Source: Endomicrobiales bacterium (GTDB lineage: Bacteria; Elusimicrobiota; Endomicrobiia; Endomicrobiales; JAFGIL01). Taken from it: 64,000 nt of DNA. The notes under the pieces are model-generated. The model saw only the letters and a list, made by a program, of their open reading frames with translations. It did no database searches and had not been told where the DNA came from. The translations under genes were made by a program, and so were the position numbers. The DNA lies in the NCBI GenBank assembly GCA_016929635.1, contig JAFGIL010000047.1:13606-77605 (forward strand), given 5' to 3'. Every line of letters begins with the position of its first letter. The stretch's first letter is position 1. Below, piece by piece: positions 28,887 to 61,066 of the stretch.

Positions 28887-29025
28887 AAACTCTAAATACT
28901 AAACTTTAAATCCTAAACAAATACAAAGCTCAAAATTCAAAACATAATATGCTTATAATAATTTTGAGTTTTATATTTTTTGATTTTAAGTTTGTTTAGA
29001 GTTTAGAATTTAGGATTCAGGGTTT
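28887..29025. repeat. Heptad-register long imperfect palindrome (intergenic)
   Basis: Left arm AAACTCT|AAATACT|AAACTTT|AAATCCT|AAAC|AAATACA|AAGCTCA|AAATTCA; reverse complement of right arm AAACCCT|GAATCCT|AAATTCT|AAACTCT|AAAC|AAACTTA. Confidence 0.85.
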
Positions 29026-29032
29026 TAATTTT

Positions 29033-30616
29033 ATGGAACCAAAAGGTTACTGGTGTTTACAGCTGCATGCACATTTGCCATTTATCAGGCATCCTGAATA
29101 TCCGGACTTTTTAGAAGAAGACTGGTTGTATGAAGGATTGACCGAGACTTACCTGCCGCTGCTTTCTATCCTGGAAAAGCTTTTAGAAGATAATGTTGAC
29201 TTCAGGCTCACGATGACTTTTACTCCGCCACTGGCTGGTATGCTTACTGATTCTTTGCTGCAGAGCCGTTATTATAACAAATTAAACAAGCTGATTGAGC
29301 TCTCAGAAAAAGAAGTATGGCGGACACGCAGTTTGCCCCAATTCCATGAAACCGCCCTGATGTATGAAAGGCAATTAAAGGATTGCCGTAGGATATGGGA
29401 AAAGTATCATGGAAATATTTTAAACGGATATAAAAACCTTCAGGATATAGGAAAGCTTGAGATCATAACATGCTGCGCTACACACGGATTTCTGCCTTTG
29501 GAAGTAAGCAACAGTGCGATACGCGGGCAGATAAAGGTAGCTTGCCAGGATTATGAAAGGATTTTTGGGCAGAGGCCGCGCGGTATCTGGCTGGCTGAAT
29601 GTGCATATGTGCCGGGTTTTGACCAGGAATTGAAAAAGGAAGAAATCAGATTCTTTTTTCTGGAATCGCACGGGATATTGTACGGTACACCGAGGCCCAG
29701 GTATGGGGTTTTTGCTCCGGTTTATTGTCCGAGCGGTGTGGCTGCATTTGGCAGAGACATGGAGACAGCTCACCAGGTATGGAGTGCTGATACCGGGTAT
29801 CCGGGAGATCCTGACTACAGGGAGTTTTACAGGGATTTGGGATATGATCTGGATTATGAGTATATAAGGCCTTATCTGCATTCTGACGGTATCAGGCGTA
29901 ACATCGGCCTTAAATACCATCGTATAACCGGAAAAGTATCTTTAGGCAATAAGCAGCCTTACAATCCCCAATGGGCTCTAAACAAGGCAGCACAGCACGC
30001 CGGGAATTTTATGTTCAACAGGGAAAAGCAGATTGAATTTTTATCCGGCATACTGGACCGCCCTCCGCTTGTGGTTTCCATGTACGATGCTGAGCTGTTC
30101 GGGCACTGGTGGTATGAGGGGCCGAAGTTTTTGGATTTCCTGTTCCGCAAAATCCACCATGACCAGAAAACTTTTAAAATGATTACTCCAATAGAGTATC
30201 TTGAAAAATTTCCGAAAAACCAGGTTGTTACCCCTGCATCTTCCAGCTGGGGAGACAAAGGTTATTTTGAGGTATGGCTGAATGGCACTAACGATTGGAT
30301 CTACAGGCACCTGCATAAAGCATCGGAACGTATGTCAGAACTGGCAAGAGAAAACCATGATAGCCACAGCCTGGTAAGAAGAGCATTGAATCAGGCAGCA
30401 AGGGAGCTGATGCTGGCTCAGTCTTCGGATTGGGCTTTCATAATGACGACAAGGACGATGTTTGAGTATGCGGAAAAACGCACGCATGACCATTTGGTAA
30501 ATTTTTCTAATTTATATGAACAGATAAAAAGGCATTCTATAGACGAAGTTTATTTAAAAGGGTTGGAAGATAAAAACAATATATTTCCAAACATGGACTA
30601 TGCTGCATTCAGATAA
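29033..30616 (+). CDS. GH57 family 1,4-alpha-glucan branching enzyme (DUF1957 C-terminus)
   Basis: LHAHLPF, ETYLPL, ATHGFLPL, GIWLAECAY (nucleophile Glu), YDAELFGHWWYEG (acid/base Asp), ARELMLAQSSDW. Confidence 0.93.
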   Translation: MEPKGYWCLQLHAHLPFIRHPEYPDFLEEDWLYEGLTETYLPLLSILEKLLEDNVDFRLTMTFTPPLAGMLTDSLLQSRYYNKLNKLIELSEKEVWRTRSLPQFHETALMYERQLKDCRRIWEKYHGNILNGYKNLQDIGKLEIITCCATHGFLPLEVSNSAIRGQIKVACQDYERIFGQRPRGIWLAECAYVPGFDQELKKEEIRFFFLESHGILYGTPRPRYGVFAPVYCPSGVAAFGRDMETAHQVWSADTGYPGDPDYREFYRDLGYDLDYEYIRPYLHSDGIRRNIGLKYHRITGKVSLGNKQPYNPQWALNKAAQHAGNFMFNREKQIEFLSGILDRPPLVVSMYDAELFGHWWYEGPKFLDFLFRKIHHDQKTFKMITPIEYLEKFPKNQVVTPASSSWGDKGYFEVWLNGTNDWIYRHLHKASERMSELARENHDSHSLVRRALNQAARELMLAQSSDWAFIMTTRTMFEYAEKRTHDHLVNFSNLYEQIKRHSIDEVYLKGLEDKNNIFPNMDYAAFR

Positions 30617-30640
30617 AGAAAAGTTTAATGGAGGAGCTGC

Positions 30641-31201
30641 TTGAAGATTACGAGGCTCCATATCCTTTTGATAACAATTATCATAGCAACTTTGGTGATA
30701 TATGTATTTCAGTTTATACAGCAGAAAAGAATCCAGGAGGAATCCGCTTTTCAAAAAGTAATAGAAAGCAGGGTTCCTGAAATTGAAGTAAAAAAAGAGG
30801 AAGTTCAGAAACAGAAAAAGCCGGTACCAAAAAAGGATTTAGCCGTTCAGGCTGTTGCTGTTGCGGGTGAATACTGGAAGATTACAAAGGAAGAGGGAAG
30901 GAACTATAAAATAGGCCAGACAACATTAAGGAAGGCAAAGGAATATTTAAAAACAGAAGATTACGAAAATGCATGGAAGCTGGCCAGGCAATCGATAGAT
31001 GAGTTTAAGGCAGCGCCTGTTCTCAGAAGCAAATACTACAAAGTCTGCCGCGGCGACTGTTTATGGAATATAGCAAAACTGCCCCAGCATTACGGACGGG
31101 GATCTATGTGGGTAAAAATCTGGCGTGCAAATGAAAGCAAGATACCGGATTTTGATATTATTTATACCGGGCAGATGCTGTATATTCCAAAAGAAAACTA
31201 A
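30641..31201 (+). CDS. Membrane-anchored LysM peptidoglycan-binding protein
   Basis: N-terminal TM; C-terminal YKVCRGDCLWNIA...W.KIW.AN..I..FDIIY.GQ.LYIP; TTG start with GGAGGAG RBS. Confidence 0.85.
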   Translation: MKITRLHILLITIIIATLVIYVFQFIQQKRIQEESAFQKVIESRVPEIEVKKEEVQKQKKPVPKKDLAVQAVAVAGEYWKITKEEGRNYKIGQTTLRKAKEYLKTEDYENAWKLARQSIDEFKAAPVLRSKYYKVCRGDCLWNIAKLPQHYGRGSMWVKIWRANESKIPDFDIIYTGQMLYIPKEN

Positions 31202-31213
31202 AAGGAACCAGGT

Positions 31214-32476
31214 ATGGAGTTTCTCTACTTAAAAGAAATACTTTTAATAGCAATATTCATTGTCGTGCTTATATTCATAAAGCGCCAGAGATACCTGGCG
31301 CAGCAGAGAGAGCTGATATACGGAAAGCGCCTGAAAGAAGCACAGTCCCAGATCCAGGAATATATCTCGGACCTGGATAACCTTATAGTCATGCTGGTCG
31401 GGATCCACGAGTTCGGGATGACTGCAACCGGCATTGTTTCTAAAGAAGAGCTTACCCAGCTGGTCGTTGATTCTGCCTGCAAGCTGATGCGTACGGATAA
31501 AGGTTCCCTGATGCTTTTAAGCCACGAGACCAACGAATTAACTATCGCCGCATCCCAGGGGCTTTCCCCTGAAGTTGTGTCAACAACCAGGATAAAGCTG
31601 GGTGAAAGCATTTCCGGCAAAGTCGCCCAGACAGGAAGGGCGATATTCGTGGAAGACATTGAAACTGACATGAGGTTTATGAGAGCCAATAACGTGCACT
31701 ACCCGTCAAAATCTTTTATTTCTGTACCTCTGCGCGTAAAGAACAGGATCATAGGGGTTTTAAATATCAATGCACAGGAGCCGAACGCCCGTTTTGAGGA
31801 AAGGGATGTTAGATTGTTGACCATATTGGCGGACCAGGCCGCGATAACCCTGGAGAACATTGAACTGTATTCTAATTTGCAGAATTTTTATTTGGAGATG
31901 GTTCAAACACTTGCACGTGCGATTGACGCAAAAGATTCTTACACTCACGAGCATGCCGACCGTGCAAGAAAATATGCGCGTTTAATCGGAATGAAGCTGA
32001 ATTTGCCTGAAGTGATGATACGTCATATAGAATACGCTGCCTTGATGCATGACATAGGTAAAATCGGAATTGATGAGAATATATTGCATAAACCCGGCAA
32101 GCTCACCGAAGAGGAGAGAGAAATCATAAAAAAACATCCTGCTATCGGAAACCGCATAATCGCTCCGGTTGCATTTCTCTCCCCTGTAGCTCCGATGGTA
32201 TTATATCATCAGGAATGGTATAACGGCCAGGGATACCCGGAAGGGCTTGCAGGCGAAGAGATACCCCTGGGCGCAAGGATAGTTGCCGTGATTGATGCTT
32301 ATGACGCTATAACTTCAGACAGGCCGTACCGGAAAGCTCTGCCGAAAGAAGTTGCTGTTCAAGAGTTGAAGAAAGGCGCTGATAAACAGTTTGACCCTAA
32401 AGTTGTAAACGCTTTTCTTAAAGTCTTGGAAGAAGAAAAACAAGAAAAGACTTCAAAAGACAGCAGCATTATTTAA
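31214..32476 (+). CDS. GAF + HD-GYP cyclic-dinucleotide phosphodiesterase with N-terminal TM
   Basis: GAF (GSLML...GESISGKVA...SFISVPL...IGVLN); HDIGKIG, YHQEWYNGQGYPEGLAGEEIPLGARIVAVIDAYDA. Confidence 0.9.
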   Translation: MEFLYLKEILLIAIFIVVLIFIKRQRYLAQQRELIYGKRLKEAQSQIQEYISDLDNLIVMLVGIHEFGMTATGIVSKEELTQLVVDSACKLMRTDKGSLMLLSHETNELTIAASQGLSPEVVSTTRIKLGESISGKVAQTGRAIFVEDIETDMRFMRANNVHYPSKSFISVPLRVKNRIIGVLNINAQEPNARFEERDVRLLTILADQAAITLENIELYSNLQNFYLEMVQTLARAIDAKDSYTHEHADRARKYARLIGMKLNLPEVMIRHIEYAALMHDIGKIGIDENILHKPGKLTEEEREIIKKHPAIGNRIIAPVAFLSPVAPMVLYHQEWYNGQGYPEGLAGEEIPLGARIVAVIDAYDAITSDRPYRKALPKEVAVQELKKGADKQFDPKVVNAFLKVLEEEKQEKTSKDSSII

Positions 32477-32477
32477 T

Positions 32478-32547
32478 AAGTCCAAGGTCCAGGGTCCCAT
32501 GCAAGGATTTTACAAACCATGGATCTTGGACTTTAAATATTGGACTT
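32478..32547. repeat. Short heptad-register palindrome (intergenic)
   Basis: AAGTCCA|AGGTCCA|GGGTCCC ... TGGATCT|TGGACTT|TAAATAT|TGGACTT, ending directly at the rsmI ATG. Confidence 0.75.
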
Positions 32548-33261
32548 ATGTTAGAAAAAGGCATATTGTATCTTGTACCCACTCCCATAGGAAATCTTGA
32601 GGATATAACCTTAAGAGCGTTAAGGATTTTAAAGGAAGTTGATTTAATAGTCTGCGAGGATACAAGGCAAACAATAAAATTATTAAATAATTTTCAGATA
32701 AAAAAGCCGCTACTAAGCTTTTATACATATAATCAGTCAAGAAGAATTCCCAAAATTATTGAAGAGTTGGAAAATAGTAAAAATCTGGCGTTAGTTTCGG
32801 ACAGCGGTACGCCGGGCATATCTGACCCCGGATATTTTCTGATAAAAGCCGCGATAGAAAACAATATACAGGTGATATCCCTTCCGGGCCCTAATGCGGT
32901 TTTAACCTCTCTGGTTGCATCCGGGCTTGCAACCAATGGTTTTGTTTTTTTGGGATTTTTAAAAAGAAAACCCGGTAAGATGAGAAAAGAGCTGCAGAGG
33001 GCAGGCGCTTTAGGCAAAACCATAGTTTTTTATGAGTCGCCGCTCAGGACAAAAAAGACACTGTCTCTGTGCAGGGAAGTATTTCCAGGGGGAATAAAAG
33101 TTGTTATTGCCCGGGAACTTACAAAAAAATTTGAAGAGTTTATACGCGGTTCATTGGATGAGGTTATAAACAGGATTAAAGACAGGGAAATAAAAGGCGA
33201 AGTGGTTATTTTAATCGAGCCGGATGAAAATGTAAAAAGCAAGGAGATTATAGATGATTAA
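32548..33261 (+). CDS. rsmI: 16S rRNA (cytidine-2'-O)-methyltransferase
   Basis: LYLVPTPIGNLEDITLRAL, CEDTR, LVSDSGTPGISDPG, FYESP.R, ARELTKKFEE..RG, KGEVV. Confidence 0.96.
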   Translation: MLEKGILYLVPTPIGNLEDITLRALRILKEVDLIVCEDTRQTIKLLNNFQIKKPLLSFYTYNQSRRIPKIIEELENSKNLALVSDSGTPGISDPGYFLIKAAIENNIQVISLPGPNAVLTSLVASGLATNGFVFLGFLKRKPGKMRKELQRAGALGKTIVFYESPLRTKKTLSLCREVFPGGIKVVIARELTKKFEEFIRGSLDEVINRIKDREIKGEVVILIEPDENVKSKEIIDD

Positions 33262-34276
33262 AGTTGCAGTTGTGGGTGCAATGGGTTACACGGGAGAAGA
33301 ATTAATAAAGATACTATCCGGGCATCCGGGCGCAGAGATTACAGTTGTTGCAGATAAACTTCCTGATCTTCCAAAGAATTTAAAGGAAATTTATCCATCA
33401 ATGAAAGATCTTAATCTTGTATGTGAAAATCTGGACGTTCCCTCAGTGTCGAAGAAGTCTGATGTTGTATTTTTAGCCGTTCCTCATAAAGTTTCACTGA
33501 CAATCGCTCCCGAATTTTTAAAGCTTAATAAAAAGGTTATTGATCTTTCTGCTGATTACAGGATTGAATCCAAGGATGTCTATGAAAAGTGGTATAATGC
33601 GGAACATACCTCATCTTCATACTTAAAGGAAGCGATATACGGATTACCGGAGCTTTACAGGGAAAAAATAAAAAATGCAAAGCTGCTAGCAAATCCAGGA
33701 TGTTACCCCACTACTATTATTTTAGGGTGTGCTCCTGCGATGAAGGAAAAGCTGGTCAGTGCAGACTCTGTAATCGTCGATGCAAAAAGCGGTGTTTCCG
33801 GAGGAGGGAGAAAGTTTGTGCAGGAATACTATAAAACGGACCATCCGAACCACAAGCCGTACAGCATAGCCGGAAAACACAGGCACATACCAGAAGTCGA
33901 GCAGGAATTGTCCAAGATAATAAAGGAGCCCGTGAAGATAACGTTCTCCCCGCATATTATTCCTACGGAAAGAGGAATGCTCTCGACAATATATATGACT
34001 CTTAATAAAAAGATAGATTCCAAGGATTTAATAAAAATATACCAGGATTTCTATAAAAACGAACCGTTTGTAAGAATTTTGCCTAACGGCGAGCTGCCGA
34101 AGATTAGAGACGTTGTAAATACGAATTACTGCGACATAGGTTTGGATATTGATGAACGCACCAATAAGCTTATTGTTGTCTCTTCGATTGATAACCTGGT
34201 AAAAGGTGCATCCGGACAGGCGGTTCAGAATATGAACATAATGTTCGGATTAAAGGAAAAGGAAGGGTTGAATTAA
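33254..34276 (+). CDS. argC: N-acetyl-gamma-glutamyl-phosphate reductase
   Basis: VGAMGYTG, DLSADYR, YGLPEL, ANPGCYPT, DAKSGVSG, DNLVKGASGQAVQN. Confidence 0.96.
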   Translation: MIKVAVVGAMGYTGEELIKILSGHPGAEITVVADKLPDLPKNLKEIYPSMKDLNLVCENLDVPSVSKKSDVVFLAVPHKVSLTIAPEFLKLNKKVIDLSADYRIESKDVYEKWYNAEHTSSSYLKEAIYGLPELYREKIKNAKLLANPGCYPTTIILGCAPAMKEKLVSADSVIVDAKSGVSGGGRKFVQEYYKTDHPNHKPYSIAGKHRHIPEVEQELSKIIKEPVKITFSPHIIPTERGMLSTIYMTLNKKIDSKDLIKIYQDFYKNEPFVRILPNGELPKIRDVVNTNYCDIGLDIDERTNKLIVVSSIDNLVKGASGQAVQNMNIMFGLKEKEGLN

Positions 34277-34279
34277 AAT

Positions 34280-35479
34280 ATGTTTCCAAAAGATTTTGCT
34301 GCGCTGGGAATCCACTGCGGAATAAAGAAAGAAAATAAAAAAAAGGATTTAGCTTTGTTCTATTCAGAATATCCTTGCAAGGCATCCGTGTTATCAACTT
34401 CAAACATTGTGAAGGCAGCCCCTGTTCTACTGAATAATAAAGCAGTAAAAGAAAATAAAAACGCCTTTAGGGCTGTGATTGTTAATTCAGGCTGTGCAAA
34501 CGCCTGTACAGGAAAGCACGGCATGCAAGATGCCATGGAAATGTGTAAATTGGTTGCTGATGGATTAAAGCTGAAACAAAAGGAAGTTCTGGTTGCTTCA
34601 ACTGGCGTTATCGGAGCGTTTCTTCCTATGAAAAAAGTGAAGAAAGGGATAGAAACGATAACGGATAGGATACAGAAGAGCCATAACGAAATTTCTGCTG
34701 TGCAGGCAATAATGACAACAGATACAAAACGCAAAATATCCAGCAGAAAAGTAAGTATCGGAGGAAAAAATGTTGTTATCTGGGGGTGTGCGAAAGGCTC
34801 GGGTATGATTCATCCTGATTTGATCCCCCATGCCACTATGATAAGTGCAGTTTTAACTGATGCGAATATATCTAAAGAGTGCCTGAAAGATGTTTTTAGC
34901 AGAGCGGTTAATAACTCCTTTAACTGCGTGACTGTTGATGGAGATACGTCTACAAACGACACTGCTATTATTCTTGCAAACGGAAGGGCCGGGAATAAGG
35001 TTATTAAAGCAAAAAACAATAGTTTTAATAAGTTCGGGAAAGCATTAAACGAAGTCTGCGTTGAACTTGCAAAGATGATTGCACGGGACGGTGAAGGCGC
35101 AACGAAATTAGTTGAAGTTGAAGTAAGAGGATGTAAAAGTCCCGGCTCTGCAAAAAAAGTTGCATCCGTTATTGCCACATCGCCTCTTGTAAAAACCGCA
35201 ATTTTCGGCTGTGACGCCAACTGGGGAAGAATACTTGCTGCATGCGGCAGGTCAGATGTTGATTTTAATCCGGAAAAAATTGCCATCTATATCGGCAATA
35301 AACTGATTTTTCATAAAGGAATGCCTGCAAAGTATTCGGAATCGAAGCTGAAAGGAATATTAAAAAAGAAGAACGTGAAAATAACAGTTGATTTAAACCA
35401 GGGAGACCACAGCGCAAAGTATTTTACATGTGATTTTTCTTTTGATTATATAAAAATAAATGCGAGTTACAGAAGCTGA
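34280..35479 (+). CDS. argJ: Bifunctional glutamate N-acetyltransferase/amino-acid acetyltransferase
   Basis: NSGCANACTG, ASTGVIG, AIMTTDT, AKGSGMIHP, VDGDTSTND, RDGEGAT, DANWGRI, YIKINASYRS. Confidence 0.96.
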   Translation: MFPKDFAALGIHCGIKKENKKKDLALFYSEYPCKASVLSTSNIVKAAPVLLNNKAVKENKNAFRAVIVNSGCANACTGKHGMQDAMEMCKLVADGLKLKQKEVLVASTGVIGAFLPMKKVKKGIETITDRIQKSHNEISAVQAIMTTDTKRKISSRKVSIGGKNVVIWGCAKGSGMIHPDLIPHATMISAVLTDANISKECLKDVFSRAVNNSFNCVTVDGDTSTNDTAIILANGRAGNKVIKAKNNSFNKFGKALNEVCVELAKMIARDGEGATKLVEVEVRGCKSPGSAKKVASVIATSPLVKTAIFGCDANWGRILAACGRSDVDFNPEKIAIYIGNKLIFHKGMPAKYSESKLKGILKKKNVKITVDLNQGDHSAKYFTCDFSFDYIKINASYRS

Positions 35480-35488
35480 ACATGATTT

Positions 35489-36118: not shown

Positions 36119-36144
36119 TCTCTTTATTCAGGTTCAGGAATCCT

Positions 36145-36606
36145 ATGCAGATATTATTTGTTTGTACTGGTAACACGTGCCGTTCGGCAATGGCTGAAGC
36201 TTTGTTGAAAAACGAAGTTAAGAAGAGGGGCATTAAAAATGTTTATGTATCCTCATGCGGAACCTCTGCTATGCCGAGTTTTCAGATACCGTCAATAGTA
36301 GTTCAATTGATGGCAAAAGAAAAAATAGATATCAGCAGTCATAAGCCAACACAGGTTAACGCGGGTTTAGTTAATAATTCAGATTTAATTCTAGCTATGT
36401 CTAAAGGCCATAAAGAATATATTATTTCGAGATTTCAGGAGTCACAGGATAAAACCTATCTATTCAAAGAATACCTTAATGAAAAAGGTGAGCAGGACAT
36501 ATTCGATCCGATAGGGCAATCAGACGAGGTGTATAAAAAAACATTAAGCAGCCTCAAAAAATGTATAAAAAAGTTAATTCAAATGATGGAGGATAAAAGT
36601 GAGTAA
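36145..36606 (+). CDS. Low-molecular-weight protein Tyr/Arg phosphatase (YwlE-like)
   Basis: [16 protein letters not shown]-loop and DIFDPIG; start taken at ATG 36145. Confidence 0.9.
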
Positions 36607-37834: not shown

Positions 37835-37849
37835 GAATTAAATAGATTT

Positions 37850-38869: not shown

Positions 38870-38874
38870 TAAAA

Positions 38875-40056: not shown

Positions 40057-40067
40057 CGGAGGAAAAG

Positions 40068-44431: not shown

Positions 44432-44433
44432 AT

Positions 44434-44529
44434 CCAGCCCCATAGATTTTTGTTATGGTAACTGGATAATTGTATTTGAAAAAAGTACGTATTTTTTAAA
44501 AGATTTAAGTTTGTAATTAATGGGGCTGG
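44434..44529. mobile_element. MITE-like 96-bp element at the murB/ddl junction
   Basis: Perfect 10-bp terminal inverted repeats CCAGCCCCAT/ATGGGGCTGG flanked by the direct repeat ATGAAT (44428-44433 and 44530-44535). Confidence 0.7.
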
Positions 44530-45465
44530 ATGAATATAAAAAGCTGGCTTAAAAATAAAAAGATAGGCGTTCTTTACGGAGGATTATCAGCAGAGAGAGA
44601 CATTTCTATTCTGACAGGAAAAGCGGTTCTTAAGGCACTTAAGGAAGAAAAGTGTAATGTAGTCGGGATAGATGCGGGAAGGGATAGCGCATCCCAGATT
44701 AAAAGGAGCAGGATTGATTTTGCCTTTATTGCCCTTCATGGTCCATGGGGCGAAGACGGGACCATACAGGGAATGCTTGAGATAATGGGTATTCCTTACT
44801 CAGGATGCGGAGTTTTAGCCAGCTCTTTGGCTTTAAATAAAATTTATTCAAAAAGGATCTTTGATTCACTCGGCATACCTACTCCCAAATGGTGGGTTTT
44901 TAATAAAAAAAATTTCAATGCCAGATTTTTAACTTCACGTTTTCCTCTGGTTATTAAACCTGCTGCCCAGGGCTCGGCTATAGGAGTATCCCTGGTTAAA
45001 GACAAAAAGGGTTTAAATAATGCGGCAAGGCGGGCTTTCAGATTGAACTCTGAAATTATTGCCGAGAAATACATCGGCGGCACTGAAATAACGGTAGGTA
45101 TCTTGGGGGGCAGGGCTTTGCCTGTCATAGAAATAGTCCCTGAGGGAAGTTTTTATGATTTTAAGTCCAAATATAAACCCGGGCAGTCGAAACATATAAT
45201 ACCGCCCCGCTTGCCGAAGAGTGTTATTAAGAATGCCCAGCAGCTGGGTTTAAGGGCTTTTAATGCCCTGGGATGTAAGGCTGTGAGCAGGGTTGATATA
45301 ATAGTGGATAAAAGAAACAAGCCGTGGGTGCTGGAAGTCAATACCGTGCCCGGCATGACCGAGACATCCCTTCTTCCTGATGCTGCCCGTGCCTGCGGAA
45401 TAGGTTTTAGTAAACTGGTGCTGAAAATTATTGAATATTCTTTAAACACGGAGAGATACGGGTAA
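44530..45465 (+). CDS. ddl: D-alanine--D-alanine ligase
   Basis: GGLSAERDIS, LHGPWGEDG.IQG, VIKPA.QGSAIG, YDF.SKY, RVD, LEVNTVPGMT. Confidence 0.97.
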   Translation: MNIKSWLKNKKIGVLYGGLSAERDISILTGKAVLKALKEEKCNVVGIDAGRDSASQIKRSRIDFAFIALHGPWGEDGTIQGMLEIMGIPYSGCGVLASSLALNKIYSKRIFDSLGIPTPKWWVFNKKNFNARFLTSRFPLVIKPAAQGSAIGVSLVKDKKGLNNAARRAFRLNSEIIAEKYIGGTEITVGILGGRALPVIEIVPEGSFYDFKSKYKPGQSKHIIPPRLPKSVIKNAQQLGLRAFNALGCKAVSRVDIIVDKRNKPWVLEVNTVPGMTETSLLPDAARACGIGFSKLVLKIIEYSLNTERYG

Positions 45466-45529
45466 TAATGATGATGGCTTCAAATTATCAGTATTAATCC
45501 GTGTGTAAAATCTGTTGTAATCCGTGTTT
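45444..45529. repeat. ACACGGA/TCCGTGT-type imperfect palindrome overlapping the ddl 3' end
   Basis: AAACACGGA (45444-45452) pairs with TCCGTGTTT (45521-45529); right arm repeats ATCAGT, ATCCGT, ATCTGT, ATCCGT. Confidence 0.6.
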
Positions 45530-45535
45530 AATTAA

Positions 45536-49851: not shown

Positions 49852-49853
49852 AT

Positions 49854-49956
49854 AGAAAGGTTAGAAAGGTTAATATGTGTTAAAATTGGTTAATAACAGT
49901 TACCTTTTGAGTAGCCTGTATTAGCCGGTTTTAAATACTGTTAACCTTTTATTCTC
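49854..49956. repeat. AGAAAGGTT x2 / nested imperfect palindrome (intergenic)
   Basis: Tandem AGAAAGGTT (49854-49871); AAAGGTTAA pairs with TTAACCTTT (about 49941-49949); inner TAACAGT/ACTGTTA. Confidence 0.5.
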
Positions 49957-49967
49957 TTATAAAAAAT

Positions 49968-50636: not shown

Positions 50637-50656
50637 AAAGCATAAAGGAGTTCAAG

Positions 50657-51733: not shown

Positions 51734-51752
51734 AAGTATATGAGGGTAGGCA

Positions 51753-52895: not shown

Positions 52896-52899
52896 TCAA

Positions 52900-53913: not shown

Positions 53914-54684
53914 ATGATTAACGAAGTAAAAACAACCAGGAATATTTTAAAGCATTCTTTTGACGACCTTATTAAATATACGGAGGTTGACGTTGTAATT
54001 GCGGGTGCAGGCCCGTCCGGGATGATTGCCTCCAAATATTTGGCGGATAATAAGGTAAAAACCCTGCTTATAGAAAAAAAATTAAGCATCGGGGGCGGGA
54101 TCTGGGGCGGCGGTATGATGTTTCCCTACATCCTTGTCCAGAAAGACAGGCGGATTTATGAAATTTTAAAGGATTTCGGAATAAAATACAGGTCGGAAAA
54201 AGACGGATTGGTAATTTCTTCCATCGAGACGGCATCTAAGTTATGTGCGGGCGCTGTAAATGCCGGTGCCAAGATATTTAACGGCATTGCCGTTGAAGAT
54301 GTAATGATAAGAAAAAACAGGATTTGCGGAGTTGTAATTAACTGGGCAGCTGTTGAAGTGGCAGGATTACATGTGGACCCTTTAACCTTGTCCAGCAAAT
54401 TTGTTGTTGATGCCACCGGGCATCCTTCGGAAGTTAGTAATGTTGTTGTGCGAAAGGTAGGCAGGCTTAAGACTCCAAGCGGGAAAATAGAAGGCGAAAA
54501 ATCCATGTGGCTGGAAAAATCCGAAAATCTGGTTGTTAAAAACACGAAAGAGGCTTTTCCGGGGCTTTATGTATGCGGTATGGCAGCTAACGCTGTCTTT
54601 GGTGCGCCGCGCATGGGCCCGATATTCGGAGGGATGTTTCTTTCCGGAAAAAAAGTAGCTGATAAAATATTAAACAAAATGTAG
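53914..54684 (+). CDS. thi4: Sulfide-dependent (non-Cys) adenosine diphosphate thiazole synthase Thi4
   Basis: GAGPSG, GGGIWGGGM.F, LHVDP (His in place of the suicide Cys), DATGH, PRMGPIFGGMFLSG. Confidence 0.93.
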   Translation: MINEVKTTRNILKHSFDDLIKYTEVDVVIAGAGPSGMIASKYLADNKVKTLLIEKKLSIGGGIWGGGMMFPYILVQKDRRIYEILKDFGIKYRSEKDGLVISSIETASKLCAGAVNAGAKIFNGIAVEDVMIRKNRICGVVINWAAVEVAGLHVDPLTLSSKFVVDATGHPSEVSNVVVRKVGRLKTPSGKIEGEKSMWLEKSENLVVKNTKEAFPGLYVCGMAANAVFGAPRMGPIFGGMFLSGKKVADKILNKM

Positions 54685-54768
54685 TGTAGGGCTTTATGCC
54701 CGTAAAAAATAGAGTTAACTAAATATTTAAATTATGATATTTTTACGGCCACAAGGGCCTACACTACA
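54680..54768. repeat. Inverted GTAG-type REP doublet (REPIN-like)
   Basis: Left GTAG-GGC-TTTAT-GCCC-GTAAAAA and right (reverse complement) GTAG-GCC-CTTGT-GGCC-GTAAAAA; outer TGTAGTGTAGG/CCTACACTACA. Confidence 0.7.
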
Positions 54769-54778
54769 ATAAAGATCT

Positions 54779-55642
54779 ATGCAAAAAAAGAAAATAGCAA
54801 TTATCGGTGTTGGTTTAATAGGAGGCTCTCTAGGGCTGGCTTTAAAGAGAAGAAGAGCCCCGTACAATGTTATCGGTGTTGGAAGAAACATTAAAAAACT
54901 CAAACTCGCAAAGAAGTTAGGCGCGGTTGATGGATACACACTTGACTGGAGTTCCGGAGTAAAGGATTCGGACATCATCGTAGTCTGTACGCCTGTTGAT
55001 ATTATTGCTTCGACAATTAAAAGAATAAAGCCTTTTTTAAAGAAAAGAGCCATAATTACCGATGTGGGGAGTGTAAAAGGGTCAGTGCTGAAAGAGATAA
55101 AAAGACTGGACCCTAAAAAGATGTTATGCTTCGTGGGGGCCCATCCCCTGGCCGGCTTGGAAAAGAACGGCGTAAAGCATGCAAAAAATGATTTATATAC
55201 AGGAGCTGCGGTTGTTATAGCAGCAGACTCCCCGGCTTCCGGCAATGCTATAGCTGAAATTAAAAGAATGTGGGGAAGCGCAGGCGCGGATGTGATTGCA
55301 ATGAACTCCGGCGTCCACGATAAAATAGTTGCTGTTACCAGTCATATGCCGCATGTTTTGGCATATGGCTTAAGTTCGGCGGTATTTAGTTTGGCCAAAA
55401 GAAATAAAAATGTTTCAAAGCTTTTGGCGGGTTCTTTCCGCGATTTAACGAGGATTGCAGACTCTAACCCAAATGATTGGGCTGCAATTTGCGGAAAAAA
55501 TCATATAGAGTTAAATAAAGCCCTTGGAAGTTATATAAATCAGTTGTCTAAAATCAGAAAAGAATTGTATTCGCAGAGGAAATTGGAAAAAGTTTTTAAA
55601 GAGGCTAAACTGGCCCGCCAAAAACTTTTAAATATTAACTAG
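54779..55642 (+). CDS. tyrA: Prephenate/arogenate dehydrogenase
   Basis: IIGVGLIGGSLG, TDVGSVK, FVGAHPLAG.E.NG, HD..VA.TSHMPH, GSFRDLTRIA.S. Confidence 0.95.
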   Translation: MQKKKIAIIGVGLIGGSLGLALKRRRAPYNVIGVGRNIKKLKLAKKLGAVDGYTLDWSSGVKDSDIIVVCTPVDIIASTIKRIKPFLKKRAIITDVGSVKGSVLKEIKRLDPKKMLCFVGAHPLAGLEKNGVKHAKNDLYTGAAVVIAADSPASGNAIAEIKRMWGSAGADVIAMNSGVHDKIVAVTSHMPHVLAYGLSSAVFSLAKRNKNVSKLLAGSFRDLTRIADSNPNDWAAICGKNHIELNKALGSYINQLSKIRKELYSQRKLEKVFKEAKLARQKLLNIN

Positions 55643-55679
55643 CATAATTCGTAAACTATCAATGAATTAATCGATTGTT

Positions 55680-57011
55680 ATGGACTGGATCATCAAACCA
55701 TTCGATCCCGGGCATGTTATAGGGATTAAGGAAATATCTGTCCCGGCTGATAAGTCAATTACCCACCGTGCAGTTATGCTGGGTGCGTTGTGCGAGGGGG
55801 AGTTTTTCATACAAAACTACTTATCATGCGACGACTGCAGCAGGACAATTCAGGCTTTCCGTGACATGGGTGTTGAGATAGAAAAGGCAGAGTACCAGCC
55901 TGTCCTGAATGATTTACAGATACAAGGTGTTGGTTTAAAAGGTTTAAAGCCTCCCAAAAAACCCATCGATGCGGGGAATTCCGGAACAACGGTAAGGCTC
56001 CTGTCGGGAATACTTGCCGGCCAGGGTTTCGAAGCTGAAATTATAGGCGATGAGAGTTTGTCCCGCAGGCCCATGAAACGCATAATCGAGCCTTTAAGGC
56101 AGATGGGAGTGGAAATATCCGCCAGGGATGATAATTATCTGCCCCTGAAGATAAAAGGTAACCCCCGTTTAAAACCCATAAAGTATGAAAGCAAGATTGC
56201 AAGCGCCCAGGTAAAGTCCTGCGTTGTTTTTGCGGGCATGCAGGCAGAAGGAAAAACTACTTTCACCGAACCGTACAAATCCCGCAATCATACGGAAAAG
56301 TTCCTGCAGGCGCTGGGGATTAATGTCGAAGTGGATGGTTTGTCGGTTTCTGTTACCGGACCGGTAAGGTTCCCGAAGAACAAGGTTGTTTTGATACCAA
56401 GGGATATTTCTGCAGCGGCTTTTTTTATGGTTGCAGGAGCCATTCTGCGCCATGCGGATTTCAGGTTATTGGATATTGGTTTCAATGAAACCCGTGACGG
56501 TATTTTGGAAGTCCTGAAAAAAATGAACGCAAAGATTACGTTGTCAAATCCTTGGAAGATATTGCCCGAGGAGGCTGCAAATATCGAAGTCAAAAGCTCA
56601 GATTTAAAACCAACGGATATAACAGGGGAGATGGTGCCAAGGCTGATTGACGAAATTCCCGTAATTGCGCTTGCAGCAACCCAGGCAAAAGGCACAACCA
56701 CAATTTCTGGTGCAAAGGAGTTAAGAGTAAAAGAAAGCGACCGTTTGAGCGCCATATCAACAGAGTTAAATAAGATGGGGGCAAATATTGAAGAAAAAGA
56801 AGACGGCCTTGTCATACACGGGCCTACCCCGTTAACCGGCAGCGAGGTTGACAGCCATGGCGACCACAGGATTGCCATGACTATGGCTATTGCGGCCCTG
56901 GTCTCAAAGGGCGAGACAAAAATAAAAAATGCCCAGTGTGTAAATATTTCATTTCCTGATTTTGCACAGAGATTAAAAGACTTAGGGGCAGATATTAAAA
57001 TTCATGAGTGA
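55680..57011 (+). CDS. aroA: 3-phosphoshikimate 1-carboxyvinyltransferase
   Basis: DKSITHRA, GNSGTT.RL, SL..RPM, SAQVKS, SRNHTE, DISAAAF, IDEIP, LRVKESDR, DHRIAM, SFP.F. Confidence 0.97.
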   Translation: MDWIIKPFDPGHVIGIKEISVPADKSITHRAVMLGALCEGEFFIQNYLSCDDCSRTIQAFRDMGVEIEKAEYQPVLNDLQIQGVGLKGLKPPKKPIDAGNSGTTVRLLSGILAGQGFEAEIIGDESLSRRPMKRIIEPLRQMGVEISARDDNYLPLKIKGNPRLKPIKYESKIASAQVKSCVVFAGMQAEGKTTFTEPYKSRNHTEKFLQALGINVEVDGLSVSVTGPVRFPKNKVVLIPRDISAAAFFMVAGAILRHADFRLLDIGFNETRDGILEVLKKMNAKITLSNPWKILPEEAANIEVKSSDLKPTDITGEMVPRLIDEIPVIALAATQAKGTTTISGAKELRVKESDRLSAISTELNKMGANIEEKEDGLVIHGPTPLTGSEVDSHGDHRIAMTMAIAALVSKGETKIKNAQCVNISFPDFAQRLKDLGADIKIHE

Positions 57012-58275
57012 AAAGAAATTGATTATAGCGATTGACGGGCCTGCGGGAGCGGGGAAATCCACGGTTTCCAAATTGGTAGCAAAAAAAATGGGCTATCTCT
57101 ATATTGACAGCGGTGCGATGTACAGGGCAATAGCCTGGAAATCAATAAAGAAGAAACTGGATTTAAACGACAACGGGAAAATAGTTGAGATGGCAAATAA
57201 AACAGATATTGTCCTGAAGCCGGGTAAATCCGGCAATTCCGCTAACTCGGTATTTGTCGATGGGGAAGATATTACGCATCAAATCAGGACTGAAGACGTT
57301 TCGCAGGGGGCGAGCAAGGTTTCTAAAATATCGGAAATAAGGAAGATACTGCAGGAAAAACAGCGCAGCCTTGGAAAAGACGGCGGTGCTGTAATGGAAG
57401 GACGTGATATAGGCACCGTGGTGTTTCCCAACGCTGATTATAAGTTTTATCTGGATGCATCAAATGATGAAAGAGCCATGCGCAGATACAAGGAATTAAA
57501 AGCCAAAGGAGAAAACGTAAGCCTGGAAAGTATAAAAGAAGAGATAGTAAAAAGAGATGAAAGGGATAAAAATCGGCAGGCAGATCCGTTAAAGAAAGCG
57601 AAGGATGCGATATTTATAGACGGCACTGAGTTAACGATAGAAGAGACGGCGGATGCCATTTTAAACAAGATCAGGAAAAAGGAAGCGAATATTTTTGAAA
57701 CAACATGGCTTTACTATTTGGGGCGGTTTTTATTCCGTGTCTTTTTTAAAATAATCTGGCGGTGGAAAATCTATGGGCATGATAACGTTCCTTTAAAAGG
57801 AGGGGTTATCATGGCTTCCAACCATTCAAGTTTTGCTGATCCTCCGCTTGTCGGATCAGCTATGAAAAGGCCTTTATTTTTCATGGCAAAAATAGAGTTA
57901 TTTGAAGTGCCTATACTGGGCTTTCTTATAAAGCGTACGAATGCCTTTCCCGTGCGGAGGGGAGAGCAGGATGTGAGCGCTTTCAGAAAAGCGCAAAAAC
58001 TGTTAAAAAGCGGTAATACCGTGCTTGTTTTCCCGGAAGGGACAAGGTCGCGTGATGGAAATTTCGGGCGGGCACTGCCCGGAGTTGGGATGCTTTCATG
58101 TCTGGCAGGGGTTCCCGTAGTTCCGGTAAGAATAGTAAATTCGGATAAATTGAACAAGATTTTACCCATAAAGCTAATATTCGGGAAAACAATTTATCCC
58201 CCGAAAGAATTCTCCCGCGATACGTATCAGAAGTTATCTGAAAAAGTGCTTGAAGAAATAAAAAATTTGCATTAG
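57004..58275 (+). CDS. cmk: Cytidylate kinase fused to 1-acyl-sn-glycerol-3-phosphate acyltransferase (PlsC)
   Basis: IAIDGPAGAGKST, DSGAMYRA, EGRDIGTVVFP.A..K.YL.AS...RA.RR, RD..D; then NHSSFAD, FMAK.ELF, FPEGTRS. Confidence 0.93.
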   Translation: MSEKKLIIAIDGPAGAGKSTVSKLVAKKMGYLYIDSGAMYRAIAWKSIKKKLDLNDNGKIVEMANKTDIVLKPGKSGNSANSVFVDGEDITHQIRTEDVSQGASKVSKISEIRKILQEKQRSLGKDGGAVMEGRDIGTVVFPNADYKFYLDASNDERAMRRYKELKAKGENVSLESIKEEIVKRDERDKNRQADPLKKAKDAIFIDGTELTIEETADAILNKIRKKEANIFETTWLYYLGRFLFRVFFKIIWRWKIYGHDNVPLKGGVIMASNHSSFADPPLVGSAMKRPLFFMAKIELFEVPILGFLIKRTNAFPVRRGEQDVSAFRKAQKLLKSGNTVLVFPEGTRSRDGNFGRALPGVGMLSCLAGVPVVPVRIVNSDKLNKILPIKLIFGKTIYPPKEFSRDTYQKLSEKVLEEIKNLH

Positions 58276-58289
58276 ATTATATAGACAAG

Positions 58290-59162
58290 ATGATAAAAGG
58301 TAATTTAAAGGTAAAAATTGCAAAGACAGCCGGTTTTTGTTTCGGGGTGCGCAGGGCAATAGAAATAGCAGAAAAAACTGCAAAAGAGAAGTCAAAGGTA
58401 TATACTCTAGGGCCTTTAATCCATAATCCCCAGGAGGTCAACCGGTTGGCCAGAGAGGGTATTAAGCCGGTAAACAGCCCCTGGCGTATGAAGGATTGCA
58501 CTTTAATACTGAGAACTCACGGGATAACGGAATCTTTCGAACAAAAACTGAGATCGAAAAAATTGGATTTGGTTGATGCAGTTTGCCCTTTCGTAGGCCG
58601 TGCGCAGGATCTGGTAAGAAAATTAACAGGAGACAATTATAAAGTCGTTATTATCGGGGACAAGACTCATCCTGAAGTGATTGCTCTGGTTTCCTACGGC
58701 AAGGGCAGATGTAAGGTTATTGAGGACAAGTATGATTTAAAAGGGCTGAACCTGGGGGATAAAGTCGGAGTTGTCAGCCAGACTACCCAGAACCTGAAGA
58801 AGTTCAAAGAAATAGTAAAATTTTTAAAAAAACGTTATAAGAACGCCGTAGTTTATAACACTATCTGCAGGGCTACGATTGACAGGCAGTCAGAAGCATC
58901 TAATATTGCCCGCAACGTGGATTTAATGATTGTGGTTGGCGGGAAAAACTCCGGCAATACAAAACGATTATACGAGATTTGCAGGAAATACACAAAAACC
59001 AGGCATATTGAAAAGGCCGGTGAGTTGAAACAGTTATGGTTTAGAAATATTAAGTCCATCGGATTAACCGCAGGAGCTTCCACTCCTGATTGGATAATAA
59101 AAGAGGTCGAGAATAAAATAAGGAAAATAAAAGCCACACTGGAAAAAAGTAAAAAGGCATAA
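58290..59162 (+). CDS. ispH: 4-hydroxy-3-methylbut-2-enyl diphosphate reductase
   Basis: AGFCFGV.RA, LIHNP, RTHG, DAVCP, HPEV, QTT, NTIC.AT..RQ, VGG.NS.NT, TAGASTP. Confidence 0.96.
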   Translation: MIKGNLKVKIAKTAGFCFGVRRAIEIAEKTAKEKSKVYTLGPLIHNPQEVNRLAREGIKPVNSPWRMKDCTLILRTHGITESFEQKLRSKKLDLVDAVCPFVGRAQDLVRKLTGDNYKVVIIGDKTHPEVIALVSYGKGRCKVIEDKYDLKGLNLGDKVGVVSQTTQNLKKFKEIVKFLKKRYKNAVVYNTICRATIDRQSEASNIARNVDLMIVVGGKNSGNTKRLYEICRKYTKTRHIEKAGELKQLWFRNIKSIGLTAGASTPDWIIKEVENKIRKIKATLEKSKKA

Positions 59163-59204
59163 AAAAAGGTTAAAATATTTTGGTGGTTGAAAGGGAGCAG
59201 TAGA

Positions 59205-60929
59205 ATGGAAGAGATAAAAAACAGTTCAGAAGAAAAGAATGCAGCAAACGTTACGGAAAATATTGAGGAGCAGAGTTCATCCGCAGGTTCAACTCCGGAA
59301 GAAGAAATGAAAATGGAGGAGTTGTTGGGCCCGGAAACCGATAATGTGATTGAAGAAGGAAAGATAGTAAGAGTGAAGGTGATAGGAAAAACCGAAGAAG
59401 GCGTGCTTGTTGACCTGGGTTTAAAAGCAGAGGGTATTGTGCCAAGGGATGAATTTAAAACAAAGGCACAGTTTGACCGCACTGCGATAGGCGATGAGCT
59501 TCCGGTTTACATTATCAGGCTCCATTCCAAGGATGGAAATCCGGTTGTTTCCTACAAGCAGGCGCGTGAGCACATTGCCTGGGACAAAATTACAAATGCT
59601 TTTAAGGAATCCACCCCTGTTGAAGGGGCTATCATAAAAAAAATAAAAGGCGGATTTATTGTCGATATTGGAGTAGAGGCATTTTTACCGGGCTCCCAGC
59701 TTGATACGTACAGGGTCAAGGATTATACAAAATATATGGGCATAAAGATGAAGTTTATTATTACGGAGCTCAAAAAAAACAATCTGGTTGTATCGCGCAG
59801 GAAACTCCTTGAACTCGAGCAGAAGGAAGGAAGGAAAAAAGTCATGAAGGACCTGTTTGAAGGCCAAATACTTGACGGGGTTGTTGTGAGAATAACGGAT
59901 TTCGGCGCTTTTGTGGATATAGGAGGCATGGAGGGTCTGCTTCATATAGGTGATATCGCATGGTACCGGATTCATAAGGTTGAGGATATTATATCTTTAA
60001 GACAGAGTGTAAAAGTTAAGGTTCTTAAGATTGACAAAGAAAAGGAGCAGGTATCCCTGGGCCTTAAACAGCTGTCCACTCATCCGTGGGAAAATGTCGG
60101 AGGTAAGTATAAAGTGGGGATGGTTGTTAAAGGCAAGATAACATCAAAGACGGATTTTGGTATTTTTGTCGAGATCGAGCCGGGAGTTGAGGGGCTGGTG
60201 CATATATCGGAAATCAGCTGGCTTGAAGATAACGCCGTAAAAATTAAAAATTTTAAGGCTAAGCAGGAAATAGAATCAAAGATAATTGCAATTGACCCGG
60301 AAAACCAGAAGCTGTCTCTTTCGTTAAAGAAATTAAAAGCTAATCCGTGGGAAGATATCAAACTGAAGTACCCTTCCGGCACGAAAATAAAAGGAGTGGT
60401 CACTAATATCACGCCTTTCGGCGCTTTCGTTAAAATAAACGAAAACATGGAAGGGCTTATACACGTCAATGATATGTCATGGATGAAGAAAGTGCGGCAT
60501 CCCCAGGATATTTTAAAAGTCAAACAGGAAATAGAGGTAGCGGTGCTGGATGTAAATCCCAGCAACGAAAAAATAAGCCTCTCATTAAAACATCTGGCCG
60601 AGGATCCTTTTAAGAAATTTCATGTAGGAAAGGTAATCAGCGGGAAAGTGAAAAGAATTGTGGATTTCGGAGCATTTGTGGAGGTAGAGCACGGGATCGA
60701 GGCTCTTCTCCGCTCGTCCGAGATTGCCCAGAAAAAGATCGGCCATCCGTCGGAAGTGTTAAAAGTCGGAGAGGAAATTGAGGCAAAAGTGATAAAGAGC
60801 GATTCAAAGGAAAGAAAGATAGATATATCTATAAGGAAGCTTGAGCGTGACCGCGAAAAGGAGTTAATAAGCAAATACGTCAATAAAGGCGAAAGACCCA
60901 CTCTGGGGGAAGTTTTGGAAGAAGAGTAG
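59205..60929 (+). CDS. rpsA: 30S ribosomal protein S1 (six S1 domains)
   Basis: Six S1 repeats (e.g. DFGAFVDIG, DFGIFVEIE, PFGAFVKIN, DFGAFVEVE; GLLHI/GLVHISE); start at ATG 59205 after GGGAG. Confidence 0.96.
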   Translation: MEEIKNSSEEKNAANVTENIEEQSSSAGSTPEEEMKMEELLGPETDNVIEEGKIVRVKVIGKTEEGVLVDLGLKAEGIVPRDEFKTKAQFDRTAIGDELPVYIIRLHSKDGNPVVSYKQAREHIAWDKITNAFKESTPVEGAIIKKIKGGFIVDIGVEAFLPGSQLDTYRVKDYTKYMGIKMKFIITELKKNNLVVSRRKLLELEQKEGRKKVMKDLFEGQILDGVVVRITDFGAFVDIGGMEGLLHIGDIAWYRIHKVEDIISLRQSVKVKVLKIDKEKEQVSLGLKQLSTHPWENVGGKYKVGMVVKGKITSKTDFGIFVEIEPGVEGLVHISEISWLEDNAVKIKNFKAKQEIESKIIAIDPENQKLSLSLKKLKANPWEDIKLKYPSGTKIKGVVTNITPFGAFVKINENMEGLIHVNDMSWMKKVRHPQDILKVKQEIEVAVLDVNPSNEKISLSLKHLAEDPFKKFHVGKVISGKVKRIVDFGAFVEVEHGIEALLRSSEIAQKKIGHPSEVLKVGEEIEAKVIKSDSKERKIDISIRKLERDREKELISKYVNKGERPTLGEVLEEE

Positions 60930-60930
60930 T

Positions 60931-61066
60931 AAATTCCAAATTACAATTTCCAAATTACAAATGGATTCCCGTCTCCAATGACCAACCGCCAAACAGTATG
61001 TTGTTTTGATTTTTGGATTTTTTTATTGGTTATTATTTGGAATTTGTTTTTTGGTATTTGGAATTT
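60931..61066. repeat. Heptad-register long imperfect palindrome (intergenic)
   Basis: Left AAATTCC|AAATTAC|AATTTCC|AAATTAC; right (reverse complement) AAATTCC|AAATACC|AAAAAAC|AAATTCC; terminal 11 bp AAATTCCAAAT/ATTTGGAATTT pair perfectly. Confidence 0.85.

Follow-up and report, generated by a model that had tools for sequence, protein, structure and literature searches.

Palindrome-filled gene junctions of an Endomicrobiales bacterium as probable inserted hairpin elements

A single-strand gene run and its hairpin-filled junctions

A stretch of 64,000 nucleotides (nt) from an Endomicrobiales bacterium (GenBank assembly GCA_016929635.1, contig JAFGIL010000047.1, positions 13,606 to 77,605), referred to here as the window, holds a long run of co-oriented genes in which six junctions, termed J1 to J6, are filled by long imperfect inverted repeats that span almost from the stop codon of one gene to the start codon of the next. 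In the coordinates of the assembly, designated G000 (2.23 Mb, 39% GC, 90%-complete), the window is C72:13606-77605, with labels such as C3, C13 and C71 denoting contigs of the same genome; genes were called crudely as longest open reading frames (ORFs), giving 93% coding. Every long ORF from 24447 to 63909 is carried by the + strand, as a preliminary description of this DNA had stated, and hairpins fill seven of the nine gaps of at least 45 nt in this run. A search with Rfam at gathering threshold gave no match in the window, rRNA included, and the genes flanking J1 to J6 encode proteins.

The folds of all six junctions stand out from the background. Each was compared with 200 dinucleotide shuffles, none of which was as good in any case (0/200 throughout), with predicted energies of -33.8 kcal/mol for J1 (z -5.66), -30.4 for J2 (z -5.62), -30.4 for J3 (z -5.34), -36.8 for J4 (z -7.45, the best of the six), -33.4 for J5 (z -5.62) and -33.5 for J6 (z -3.59), so that the fold-back filling first noticed in the sequence is confirmed over a range of z from -3.6 to -7.5. 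None of the six encloses an ORF. In the autocorrelation of the single arms, a lag of 7 gives the highest score for either arm of J1, J2 and J6 (match 0.48-0.71; shuffle p 0.0005-0.009), exactly the three junctions for which a 7-nt register had been described, while the best lag of J3 and J4 is 10 and J5 is aperiodic. The hairpins comprise at least three classes and the six can no longer be treated as one family, with 7-nt units in J1, J2 and J6, units of ~10 nt in J3 and J4 and an aperiodic multi-copy sequence in J5.

Among the heptad hairpins, J1 (28881..29031, + strand) is located between the DUF4912 and GH57 branching-enzyme genes and is listed as heptad element C72:42490-42631; its ORF-less hairpin consists of a 62-nt 5' arm (28881-28942) with the units AAACTCT/AAATACT/AAACTTT/AAATCCT and a 62-nt 3' arm (28970-29031) with the units TAGAGTT/TAGAATT/TAGGATT, on both of which lag 7 is best (p 0.0075 and 0.0015). 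J2 (32476..32549, +), equally an ORF-less heptad hairpin, separates a GAF/HD-GYP-type gene from an rsmI-like methylase gene and has the arms AAGTCCA-AGGTCCA-GGGTCCC and TTGGACT-(7 nt)-TTGGACT (lag 7 best, p 0.0005 and 0.009). J6 (60930..61067, +; C72:74533-74672 in the heptad-element list) is situated between rpsA and bamA, the actual start of the latter being the ATG at 61073, and its arms of AAATTCC/AAATTAC x5 and ATTTGGA/ATTTGTT x5 (lag-7 fractions 0.71 and 0.68; p 0.0005 and 0.003) flank a spacer of ~70 nt without an ORF. The J6 unit recurs as a pair at C3:8029, C20:34670 and C75:5517 and solo on C48, C13 and C4, its other copies having unrelated inner sequence. A miniature inverted-repeat transposable element was considered and rejected, J1 to J4 being unique by blastn and the recurring J6 unit having unrelated interiors.

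J3 (45441..45531, +), between ddl and ftsQ, is an ORF-less hairpin of ~10-nt units with ACACGGA/TCCGTGT, closed by a perfect outer stem of 11 bp (45442-45452 with 45521-45531). The 5' arm of J3 extends into ddl over 25 nt (45441-45465) and supplies the final codons of this gene, which is ~5 residues longer in G000 than the region aligned in relatives; the insertion of J3 seems to have replaced the original ddl stop. J4 (49854..49956, +), again ORF-less, lies between the genes for a T2SSE/PilT-type ATPase and a Cu-oxidase_4 (YfiH-like) protein and opens with GAAAGGTTA x2, followed by GTTAA words, its best lag of 10 lying in a range of 9-10. The aperiodic J5 (54680..54768, +), between the thi4 and prephenate dehydrogenase genes, consists of two arms of 29 nt in inverted orientation, TGTAGTGTAGGGCTTTATGCCCGTAAAAA and the complementary sequence. 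One further junction filled by a hairpin, the seventh, is absent from the first list and was recognised upstream of ddl (44432..44529, +), where a GC-rich terminal stem of 12 bp (ATCCAGCCCCAT / ATGGGGCTGGAT) closes a 70-nt interior (-28.9 kcal/mol, z -5.0). A similar hairpin ending in CCAGCCC is found at C26:7128-7223.

Expression signals along the run agree with the earlier description in two respects and depart from it in a third. Terminator-like matches occur at chance level (21 vs 18.7 expected; 24 vs 20.4) and the scan of the run gave no match at any hairpin junction; canonical terminators are absent from the run. Equally, a Shine-Dalgarno (SD)-like word at -18..-4 precedes none of the six starts downstream of J1 to J6 and 19 of the 32 other starts in the run, a contrast for which a hand calculation gives a one-sided hypergeometric p of ~0.01. 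On the other hand, near-consensus sigma-70-like promoter-like sites (TTGACA-17-TAAAAT, 11/12 match) are present at 27931-27959 and 63957-63985. Since these sit in two other long gaps, a single super-operon of 39 kb, as had been envisaged, is not shown, and the run probably consists of more than one transcription unit. Apart from the two gaps with these sites, every long gap of the run is filled by a hairpin.

Periodic arrays and small genes in this genome, its relatives and other phyla

The excess of such hairpins is a genome-wide observation. In a fold scan of 509 gaps of 45-220 nt, performed with mononucleotide shuffles, 154 gaps have z < -3, which amounts to 31-32% of the co-directional gaps, 48% of the convergent and 7.5% of the divergent ones, and inverted repeats with a best score of at least 36 are found in 158 of 658 gaps vs 12 after shuffling. 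Placement after stops is equally well established, the median stem starting 3 nt past the stop codon and ending ~8 nt ahead of the next start, with a T-tract after only 5-6% of the hairpins; an intrinsic (Rho-independent) terminator was accordingly rejected as an identity of the junction elements, which the terminator scan had left unmatched. Over 109 strong hairpins, arm autocorrelation amounts to 0.357, ~0.34 and ~0.34 at lags 7, 14 and 21 and to 0.25-0.31 at the remaining lags between 2 and 20, and non-hairpin gaps are flat. The repeats are hence commoner than after shuffling and more periodic than non-hairpin gaps, and, as had been supposed, it is periodicity and fold-back that are kept and not the sequence; the units differ from locus to locus.

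Tandem arrays were subsequently defined by 70% identity over 4 units, a criterion that replaced a low-score TRF search, which was swamped by coding periodicities, and a lag test at 86% and 3 units, which was too strict (6 lag-7 hits). By this census 88 lag-7 arrays occur in 209 kb of non-coding DNA vs 55 in 2.0 Mb of coding DNA, the respective figures for lag 8 being 8 and 17, and in non-coding DNA lag 7 predominates over lags 6, 8 and 9. Pairing of lag-7 arrays with a reverse-complement partner yields 42 inverted heptad elements, of which 37 have an inner spacer of 3-107 nt and four a spacer of 340-410 nt that holds a PF05635 ORF, the remaining one being a probable mis-pairing; roughly one in two intergenic lag-7 arrays has no partner, C4:26692 and C13:14706 being examples. 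Purine polarity of the 5' arms (10 vs 6) is not significant.

The small genes inside such arrays lead to the class to which the junction hairpins may belong. A profile search with confirmation by Pfam identified in G000 six genes of PF05635, the '23S rRNA intervening-sequence protein', and two TIGR04256 GxxExxY genes, and inverted short-unit arrays flank five of the six PF05635 genes and both GxxExxY genes, the enclosed cargo gene being co-oriented with its protein-coding neighbours where such neighbours exist. A link of the arms to four-helix-bundle and GxxExxY genes, which had been put forward earlier, is thereby substantiated here and, as detailed below, in other phyla. The PF05635 genes are that of the cassette C71:1012-1467, in AGTACAA heptad arms between two tRNA genes, C27:37770-38084 (TCGTATC arms, one in-frame stop TAA), C59:18859-19167 (AGCGTAN arms, one in-frame stop TAA), a gene on C3 (AGACNAG arms) and C13:43676-43996 (AGTCCTN arms, one in-frame stop TGA), while the GxxExxY genes are enclosed by ACACGGA at ~10-nt spacing (C63:67764-68138), which is the J3 unit, and by CGCAGAT at ~10-nt spacing (on C16). 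When 7,734 small ORFs were examined for inverted repeats on their two sides, 10 hits were obtained vs 0 after shuffling, which added two cargo types, a Y1_Tnp gene with GTAGGGGC palindromes and a GIY-YIG gene of 96 aa (C3:20042-20332) between GTCATTGCGAG...CGAAGC arms. Long ORF-less hairpins made from the words of the GIY-YIG arms are seen at C3:39259-39466 and C16:5881-6057, a third pairing of cargo and hairpin.

It is observed that units are shared between ORF-bearing and ORF-less copies. AGCGTAT (four loci), CGCAGAT (at least three), ACACGGA and TCGTATC occur in ORF-less hairpins as well as in cargo cassettes, and a comparison of units with C13 and C6:3089 indicated that the AGTCC core of J2 resembles the arms of the PF05635 cassette C13:43592-44064. 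By its unit, J3 has the arms found elsewhere around GxxExxY genes, here without an ORF, and the J6 unit brackets PF05635 genes in relatives as AATTACA arms (L081, L067).

A second type of hairpin is represented by J5, which has 41 non-self blastn hits in the genome and belongs to a family beginning with GTAG, the word GTAGTGTAGG of which occurs 33 times; as in repetitive extragenic palindromes (REPs), which are dispersed 5'-GTAG palindromes often arranged as inverted doublets, its two 29-nt arms are inverted. G000 possesses seven Y1_Tnp genes similar to REP-associated tyrosine transposases (RAYTs), several adjoining a palindrome family of their own. Five are placed beside distinct GC-rich palindrome families, C47:8901-9605, C22:47002-47733, C66:40703-41398, C3:30940-31629 and C34:20543-20977, with the palindromes listed for them being CCCGTTCCCGGAACGGG, GGGACAGACAC, CACACCGCGGGGGTGTG, CCAATGTCCAAT... 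and GTAGGGGC; the last-mentioned palindromes flank C34:20543-20977, and the exact J5 sequence was shown at no Y1_Tnp flank. It would seem that several REP-RAYT systems exist side by side in this genome of 2.2 Mb, and because of the multi-copy GTAG family and the seven Y1_Tnp genes J5 is best read as a REP/REPIN-type element. The earlier idea of targets for an HUH enzyme suits J5 and other REP-like families with Y1_Tnp genes beside the palindromes; the proteins of the heptad and 10-nt classes are not HUH enzymes.

PF05635 is present in 32 of 104 genomes of the Endomicrobiales and missing from the small-genome genus g11. At 74 PF05635 loci of relatives, the gene and its best flank-to-flank inverted repeat were located and the period was scored at a repeat score of at least 26, which assigned period 7 to 29 loci, period 8 to 17 and period 10 to one; the cargo is downstream of a co-oriented gene in 22 of the 24 loci with a scorable upstream neighbour. 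On the protein tree the 7/8 period label needs 5 changes vs 14.1 in shuffles, none of 500 being as low, and both periods coexist in the single genomes G023, G073 and G009, so that the period tracks the lineage of the cargo protein or cassette and not the host. A PF05635 clade with 8-nt units is located in family f10 (L033, L036, L039, L042-L049, L052, L069, L070), with units such as AGAAGCTG, GAGGTATA and TTGGAAGA, and the same genomes also hold 7-nt cassettes. The co-distribution of arrays and PF05635 was sampled in 400-kb stretches of four genomes, where the counts of intergenic lag-7/lag-8 arrays are 62/0 in G001, 22/8 in G023, which has cassettes of both periods, and 8/2 in 101 kb of non-coding DNA of G020, a genome without PF05635; a co-distribution of array density with PF05635 is suggestive on these four genomes.

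Hairpins that fill a junction here are absent from the same junction in relatives. A search for loci related to that of rpsA gave distant phyla only, and few relatives preserve the gene order beyond rpsA on its downstream side, so that ddl-ftsQ, the site of J3, was chosen for comparison: its gap is only -14 to +25 nt in ~20 of 29 relatives, a long gap in three further ones is probably an artefact of the choice of start codon, and G005 has a different hairpin of TCAG-type heptads at this junction. Equally, the rpsA-bamA gap of G001, a member of the same family, has no hairpin, and in L006, from a genome of a different family, heptads are seen downstream of rpsA. Orthologous junctions thus differ in their hairpin, as the idea of insertion had led the preliminary description to look for.

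The combination of cargo and arms is conserved across phyla. The closest homologues of the C71-type protein, with 55-66% identity, include proteins labelled Omnitrophota and Atribacterota, and three loci of this type (Omnitrophota, Atribacterota and a further contig) fit tightly between co-oriented neighbours, which in one case are pgk and tpi, and all have inverted ATAGTAC/ATAGTAT heptads close to the C71 unit AGTACAA. Homologues of the C63 GxxExxY protein with 68-72% identity in Spirochaetota, Omnitrophota and a metagenome contig are flanked by arrays of ACACGGAT and its complement, the J3 unit. Unit length, and in two lineages also unit sequence, travels with the lineage of the cargo protein. 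In a Spirochaetota metagenome-assembled genome (L191:60-300) the ACACGGAT array upstream of GxxExxY has grown to ~240 nt and shows a higher-order repeat, the arm on the other side having stayed short; this shows that the arms grow by duplication of units and blocks.

Proposed inserted hairpin elements and alternative explanations

We consider it rather probable that at least two kinds of inserted hairpin element make up the junction palindromes, ORF-less cassettes of the intervening sequence (IVS) type in tight junctions and the REP/REPIN-type J5. J1, J2 and J6 with 7-nt units, J3 with ~10-nt units and probably J4 would be ORF-less members of an IVS-like class of small cassettes, in which two mirror-image tandem arrays of short units pair into a long stem. 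In a full cassette this stem encloses a single small gene, without a promoter and co-oriented with the host gene that precedes it, the cargo being either the PF05635 four-helix-bundle 'IVS protein' with 7- or 8-nt units or the GxxExxY PD-(D/E)XK nuclease with ~10-nt units. The elements would be transcribed within the host mRNA and their stems cut by RNase III, as in the Coxiella IVS, splitting polycistronic RNA at the junctions, and such cuts could leave the SD-less downstream genes with short leaders. Arms may change by slippage of whole units and be kept complementary, whereby the period would be retained, and the cargo proteins may act on their own repeats. The hairpin elements, we infer, are mobile. 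Of the structure-recognised empty-cassette sites that had been proposed, the notion of empty cassettes is upheld by the units common to ORF-bearing copies and the analogy with integron attC is abandoned.

Several observations weigh against the reading as inserted elements. J1 to J4 are single-copy by blastn, identity among the five array-flanked PF05635 genes is only 29-52% and three of the five have an in-frame stop; for these reasons there is no sign of recent transposition here, and the PF05635 cassettes of this genome are old and partly decaying. No cargo-bearing relative was found for J4, and tblastn detected cargo remnants in none of the ORF-less hairpins; as no ORF remnant is left, the descent of empty from full cassettes is not shown, and the reverse direction, genes settling into pre-existing hairpins, could apply. 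Equally, the match of period and protein lineage could reflect simple co-inheritance, and the co-distribution of arrays with PF05635 is drawn from four genomes. An advantage of the sense strand in folding (60 vs 33, p 3e-4) disappeared once composition was controlled, the excess after subtraction of shuffles being -0.49 kcal/mol (p 0.35), and as the advantage was compositional, selection in RNA and origin in DNA are not distinguished. Moreover, a search for RNase III (TIGR02191, PF14622) found no gene in the 90%-complete assembly of G000. The gene was recovered from 28 of the 31 genomes examined, G001 from the same family being one of these, and its lack in G000 is probably an assembly gap.

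The nearest competing explanation, although an unlikely one, is that the hairpins are RNA 3'-end structures evolved by the host, such as terminators without a U-tract, read-through attenuators or exonuclease blocks, unrelated to any cassette. Their placement after stops, their rarity in divergent gaps, the exact filling of junctions and the absence of canonical terminators from the run would all be expected of such structures, but they are not conserved at orthologous junctions, with ddl-ftsQ tight in most relatives and an unrelated hairpin in G005, their sense-strand-specific stabilisation is gone after the composition control, and neither tandem units of 7, 8 and 10 nt nor the bracketing of PF05635 and GxxExxY genes across phyla is explained. 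Somewhat less credence is given to neutral local satellites, by which slippage in AT-rich spacers, with template switching for the mirror arm, would create the arrays and the association with small genes would be incidental. A unit particular to each locus, partnerless solo arrays and the variation of heptamer copy number among Coxiella strains (PMC4990558) suit this explanation; against it, lag 7 dominates lags 6, 8 and 9 in non-coding DNA, the period follows the cargo lineage within a single genome, the unit sequence stays with the protein across phyla and arrays are sparse in G020, which is without PF05635.

Another improbable alternative, ranking slightly behind neutral satellites and of a kind already proposed for Geobacter and Beggiatoaceae, is that a regulator or RNA-binding protein of the host (S1, Csp or CsrA-like) binds the arrays. 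Looped heptanucleotide pairs of G. metallireducens are annotated as regulator sites (PMC2700814), and TAACTGA arrays precede SD-less starts (PMC4679880), as do the hairpins at the six junctions here. Yet the arrays form complementary pairs and enclose genes, and because the units differ from locus to locus a single host factor cannot read all of them. Very improbable indeed are integron-like attC sites at which cassettes are missing: the junction elements do recall attC in their length, imperfect palindromy and single orientation and in the conservation of structure over sequence, but no integron integrase was found in the 90%-complete genome, the best score with TIGR02249 being 85 bits vs a cut-off of 265. 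The genes between the hairpin sites, 1-12 in number, are core housekeeping genes in conserved order, as in the dcw cluster, and include ddl, ftsQ, rpsA, bamA and GH57, and the sites are scattered over the whole genome and not arrayed.

Returning to inserted hairpin elements, a wider proposal can be offered only tentatively and is judged rather doubtful as a whole. PF05635 proteins (7- or 8-nt units) and GxxExxY proteins (~10-nt units) might each recognise their own arm unit and maintain or spread gene-bearing as well as gene-less hairpins, in the way of RAYTs with REPINs, and the heptamer arrays of cyanobacteria (short tandemly repeated repetitive sequences, STRR) and Geobacter, the TAACTGA arrays and the IVS of rRNA might constitute one pan-bacterial class. 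That repeat length and word follow the protein lineage across phyla leads to the hypothesis that each protein binds or cuts its own repeat. The best match of the C71 protein in the PDB is XCC0516 (2gsc), deposited as five chains, from which pentamers of PF05635 proteins are suggested.

To our knowledge, intergenic tandem heptamer arrays have been reported since 1990 without an accepted explanation, and the IVS and GxxExxY proteins are, as far as we know, very large families without a known function; in G000, arrays, hairpins and the two protein families belong together. The elements take up most of the longer spacers of a very compact genome and, if the proposal is true, set the cut points of operon transcripts in compact genomes such as G000. 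As the hairpins are located directly ahead of SD-less essential genes (ftsQ, bamA), both the processing and the translation of core-operon mRNA may be influenced by them.

Comparison with known systems

A literature search found no paper describing this class of hairpin cassettes, which has features in common with four known systems. REP and REPIN palindromes are reportedly associated with transposase-like RAYT genes of the Y1 HUH type, as described by Nunvar in 2010 and by Bertels and Rainey in 2011. J5 and several GC-rich families share with them multiple copies, a GTAG start, an arrangement as inverted doublets after stops and a position beside Y1_Tnp genes. The heptad and 10-nt classes differ in having arms built as tandem arrays, in lacking many copies of near-identical sequence and in a cargo that is a four-helix bundle or a PD-(D/E)XK nuclease and not an HUH enzyme. 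In functional terms this system, with its non-autonomous hairpins and a protein gene present once, is the best analogy for the other hairpins too, the heptad class included.

The attC sites of integrons are likewise imperfect palindromes in which the fold prevails over the sequence and which have one orientation relative to the genes. Here they were tried as an identity and rejected, there being no IntI (85 vs 265 bits) and no cassette array, core genes instead of accessory cassettes between the sites, and arms composed of tandem units.

Cyanobacteria are said to contain intergenic heptanucleotide arrays known as STRR, a description attributed to Mazel in 1990. Geobacter metallireducens has heptanucleotide arrays in looped pairs annotated as 'global regulator binding sites' (PMC2700814), and TAACTGA arrays of Beggiatoaceae, Cyanobacteria and Bacteroidetes are situated just upstream of starts without an SD (PMC4679880). 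As in G000, these are tandem 7-nt units in intergenic positions, often directly upstream of starts with a poor SD; they differ in having one unit per genome, described as a regulator site, and no link to PF05635 or GxxExxY, whereas in G000 many units coexist and pair into hairpins. The heptamer arrays of these reports probably represent the same phenomenon, recognised there without its link to genes.

ORF-bearing IVS of 23S rRNA, with an S23p / PF05635 ORF, come nearest of all known systems and are found in Coxiella burnetii, Leptospira and Xanthomonas (PMC4990558). In the IVS of C. burnetii (helix 45) RNase III cleaves the terminal stem, which is 28 bp long (Warrier et al. 2016, PMC4990558), 2-3 tandem GACAGAT heptamers, the number of which varies between strains, precede the S23p ORF, and this ORF is reported to be decaying. 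The elements described here are located between protein-coding and tRNA genes and not inside rRNA, most copies are ORF-less, both arms consist wholly of tandem units, and a second cargo, the GxxExxY nuclease, has a unit length of its own. A terminal inverted-repeat stem is nonetheless common to the six junctions and the ORF-bearing copies, with an ORF in the loop at C71, C27, C59, C3 and C13 and at none of the six junctions. The tRNA-flanked C71 cassette, in a transcript that is processed anyway, is the closest analogue in this genome to an rRNA intervening sequence. Shared with the rRNA IVS are the long terminal inverted-repeat stem round one small PF05635 gene, the tandem heptamers by the start of the ORF, the lack of a promoter of its own and the decay of the ORF in some copies.

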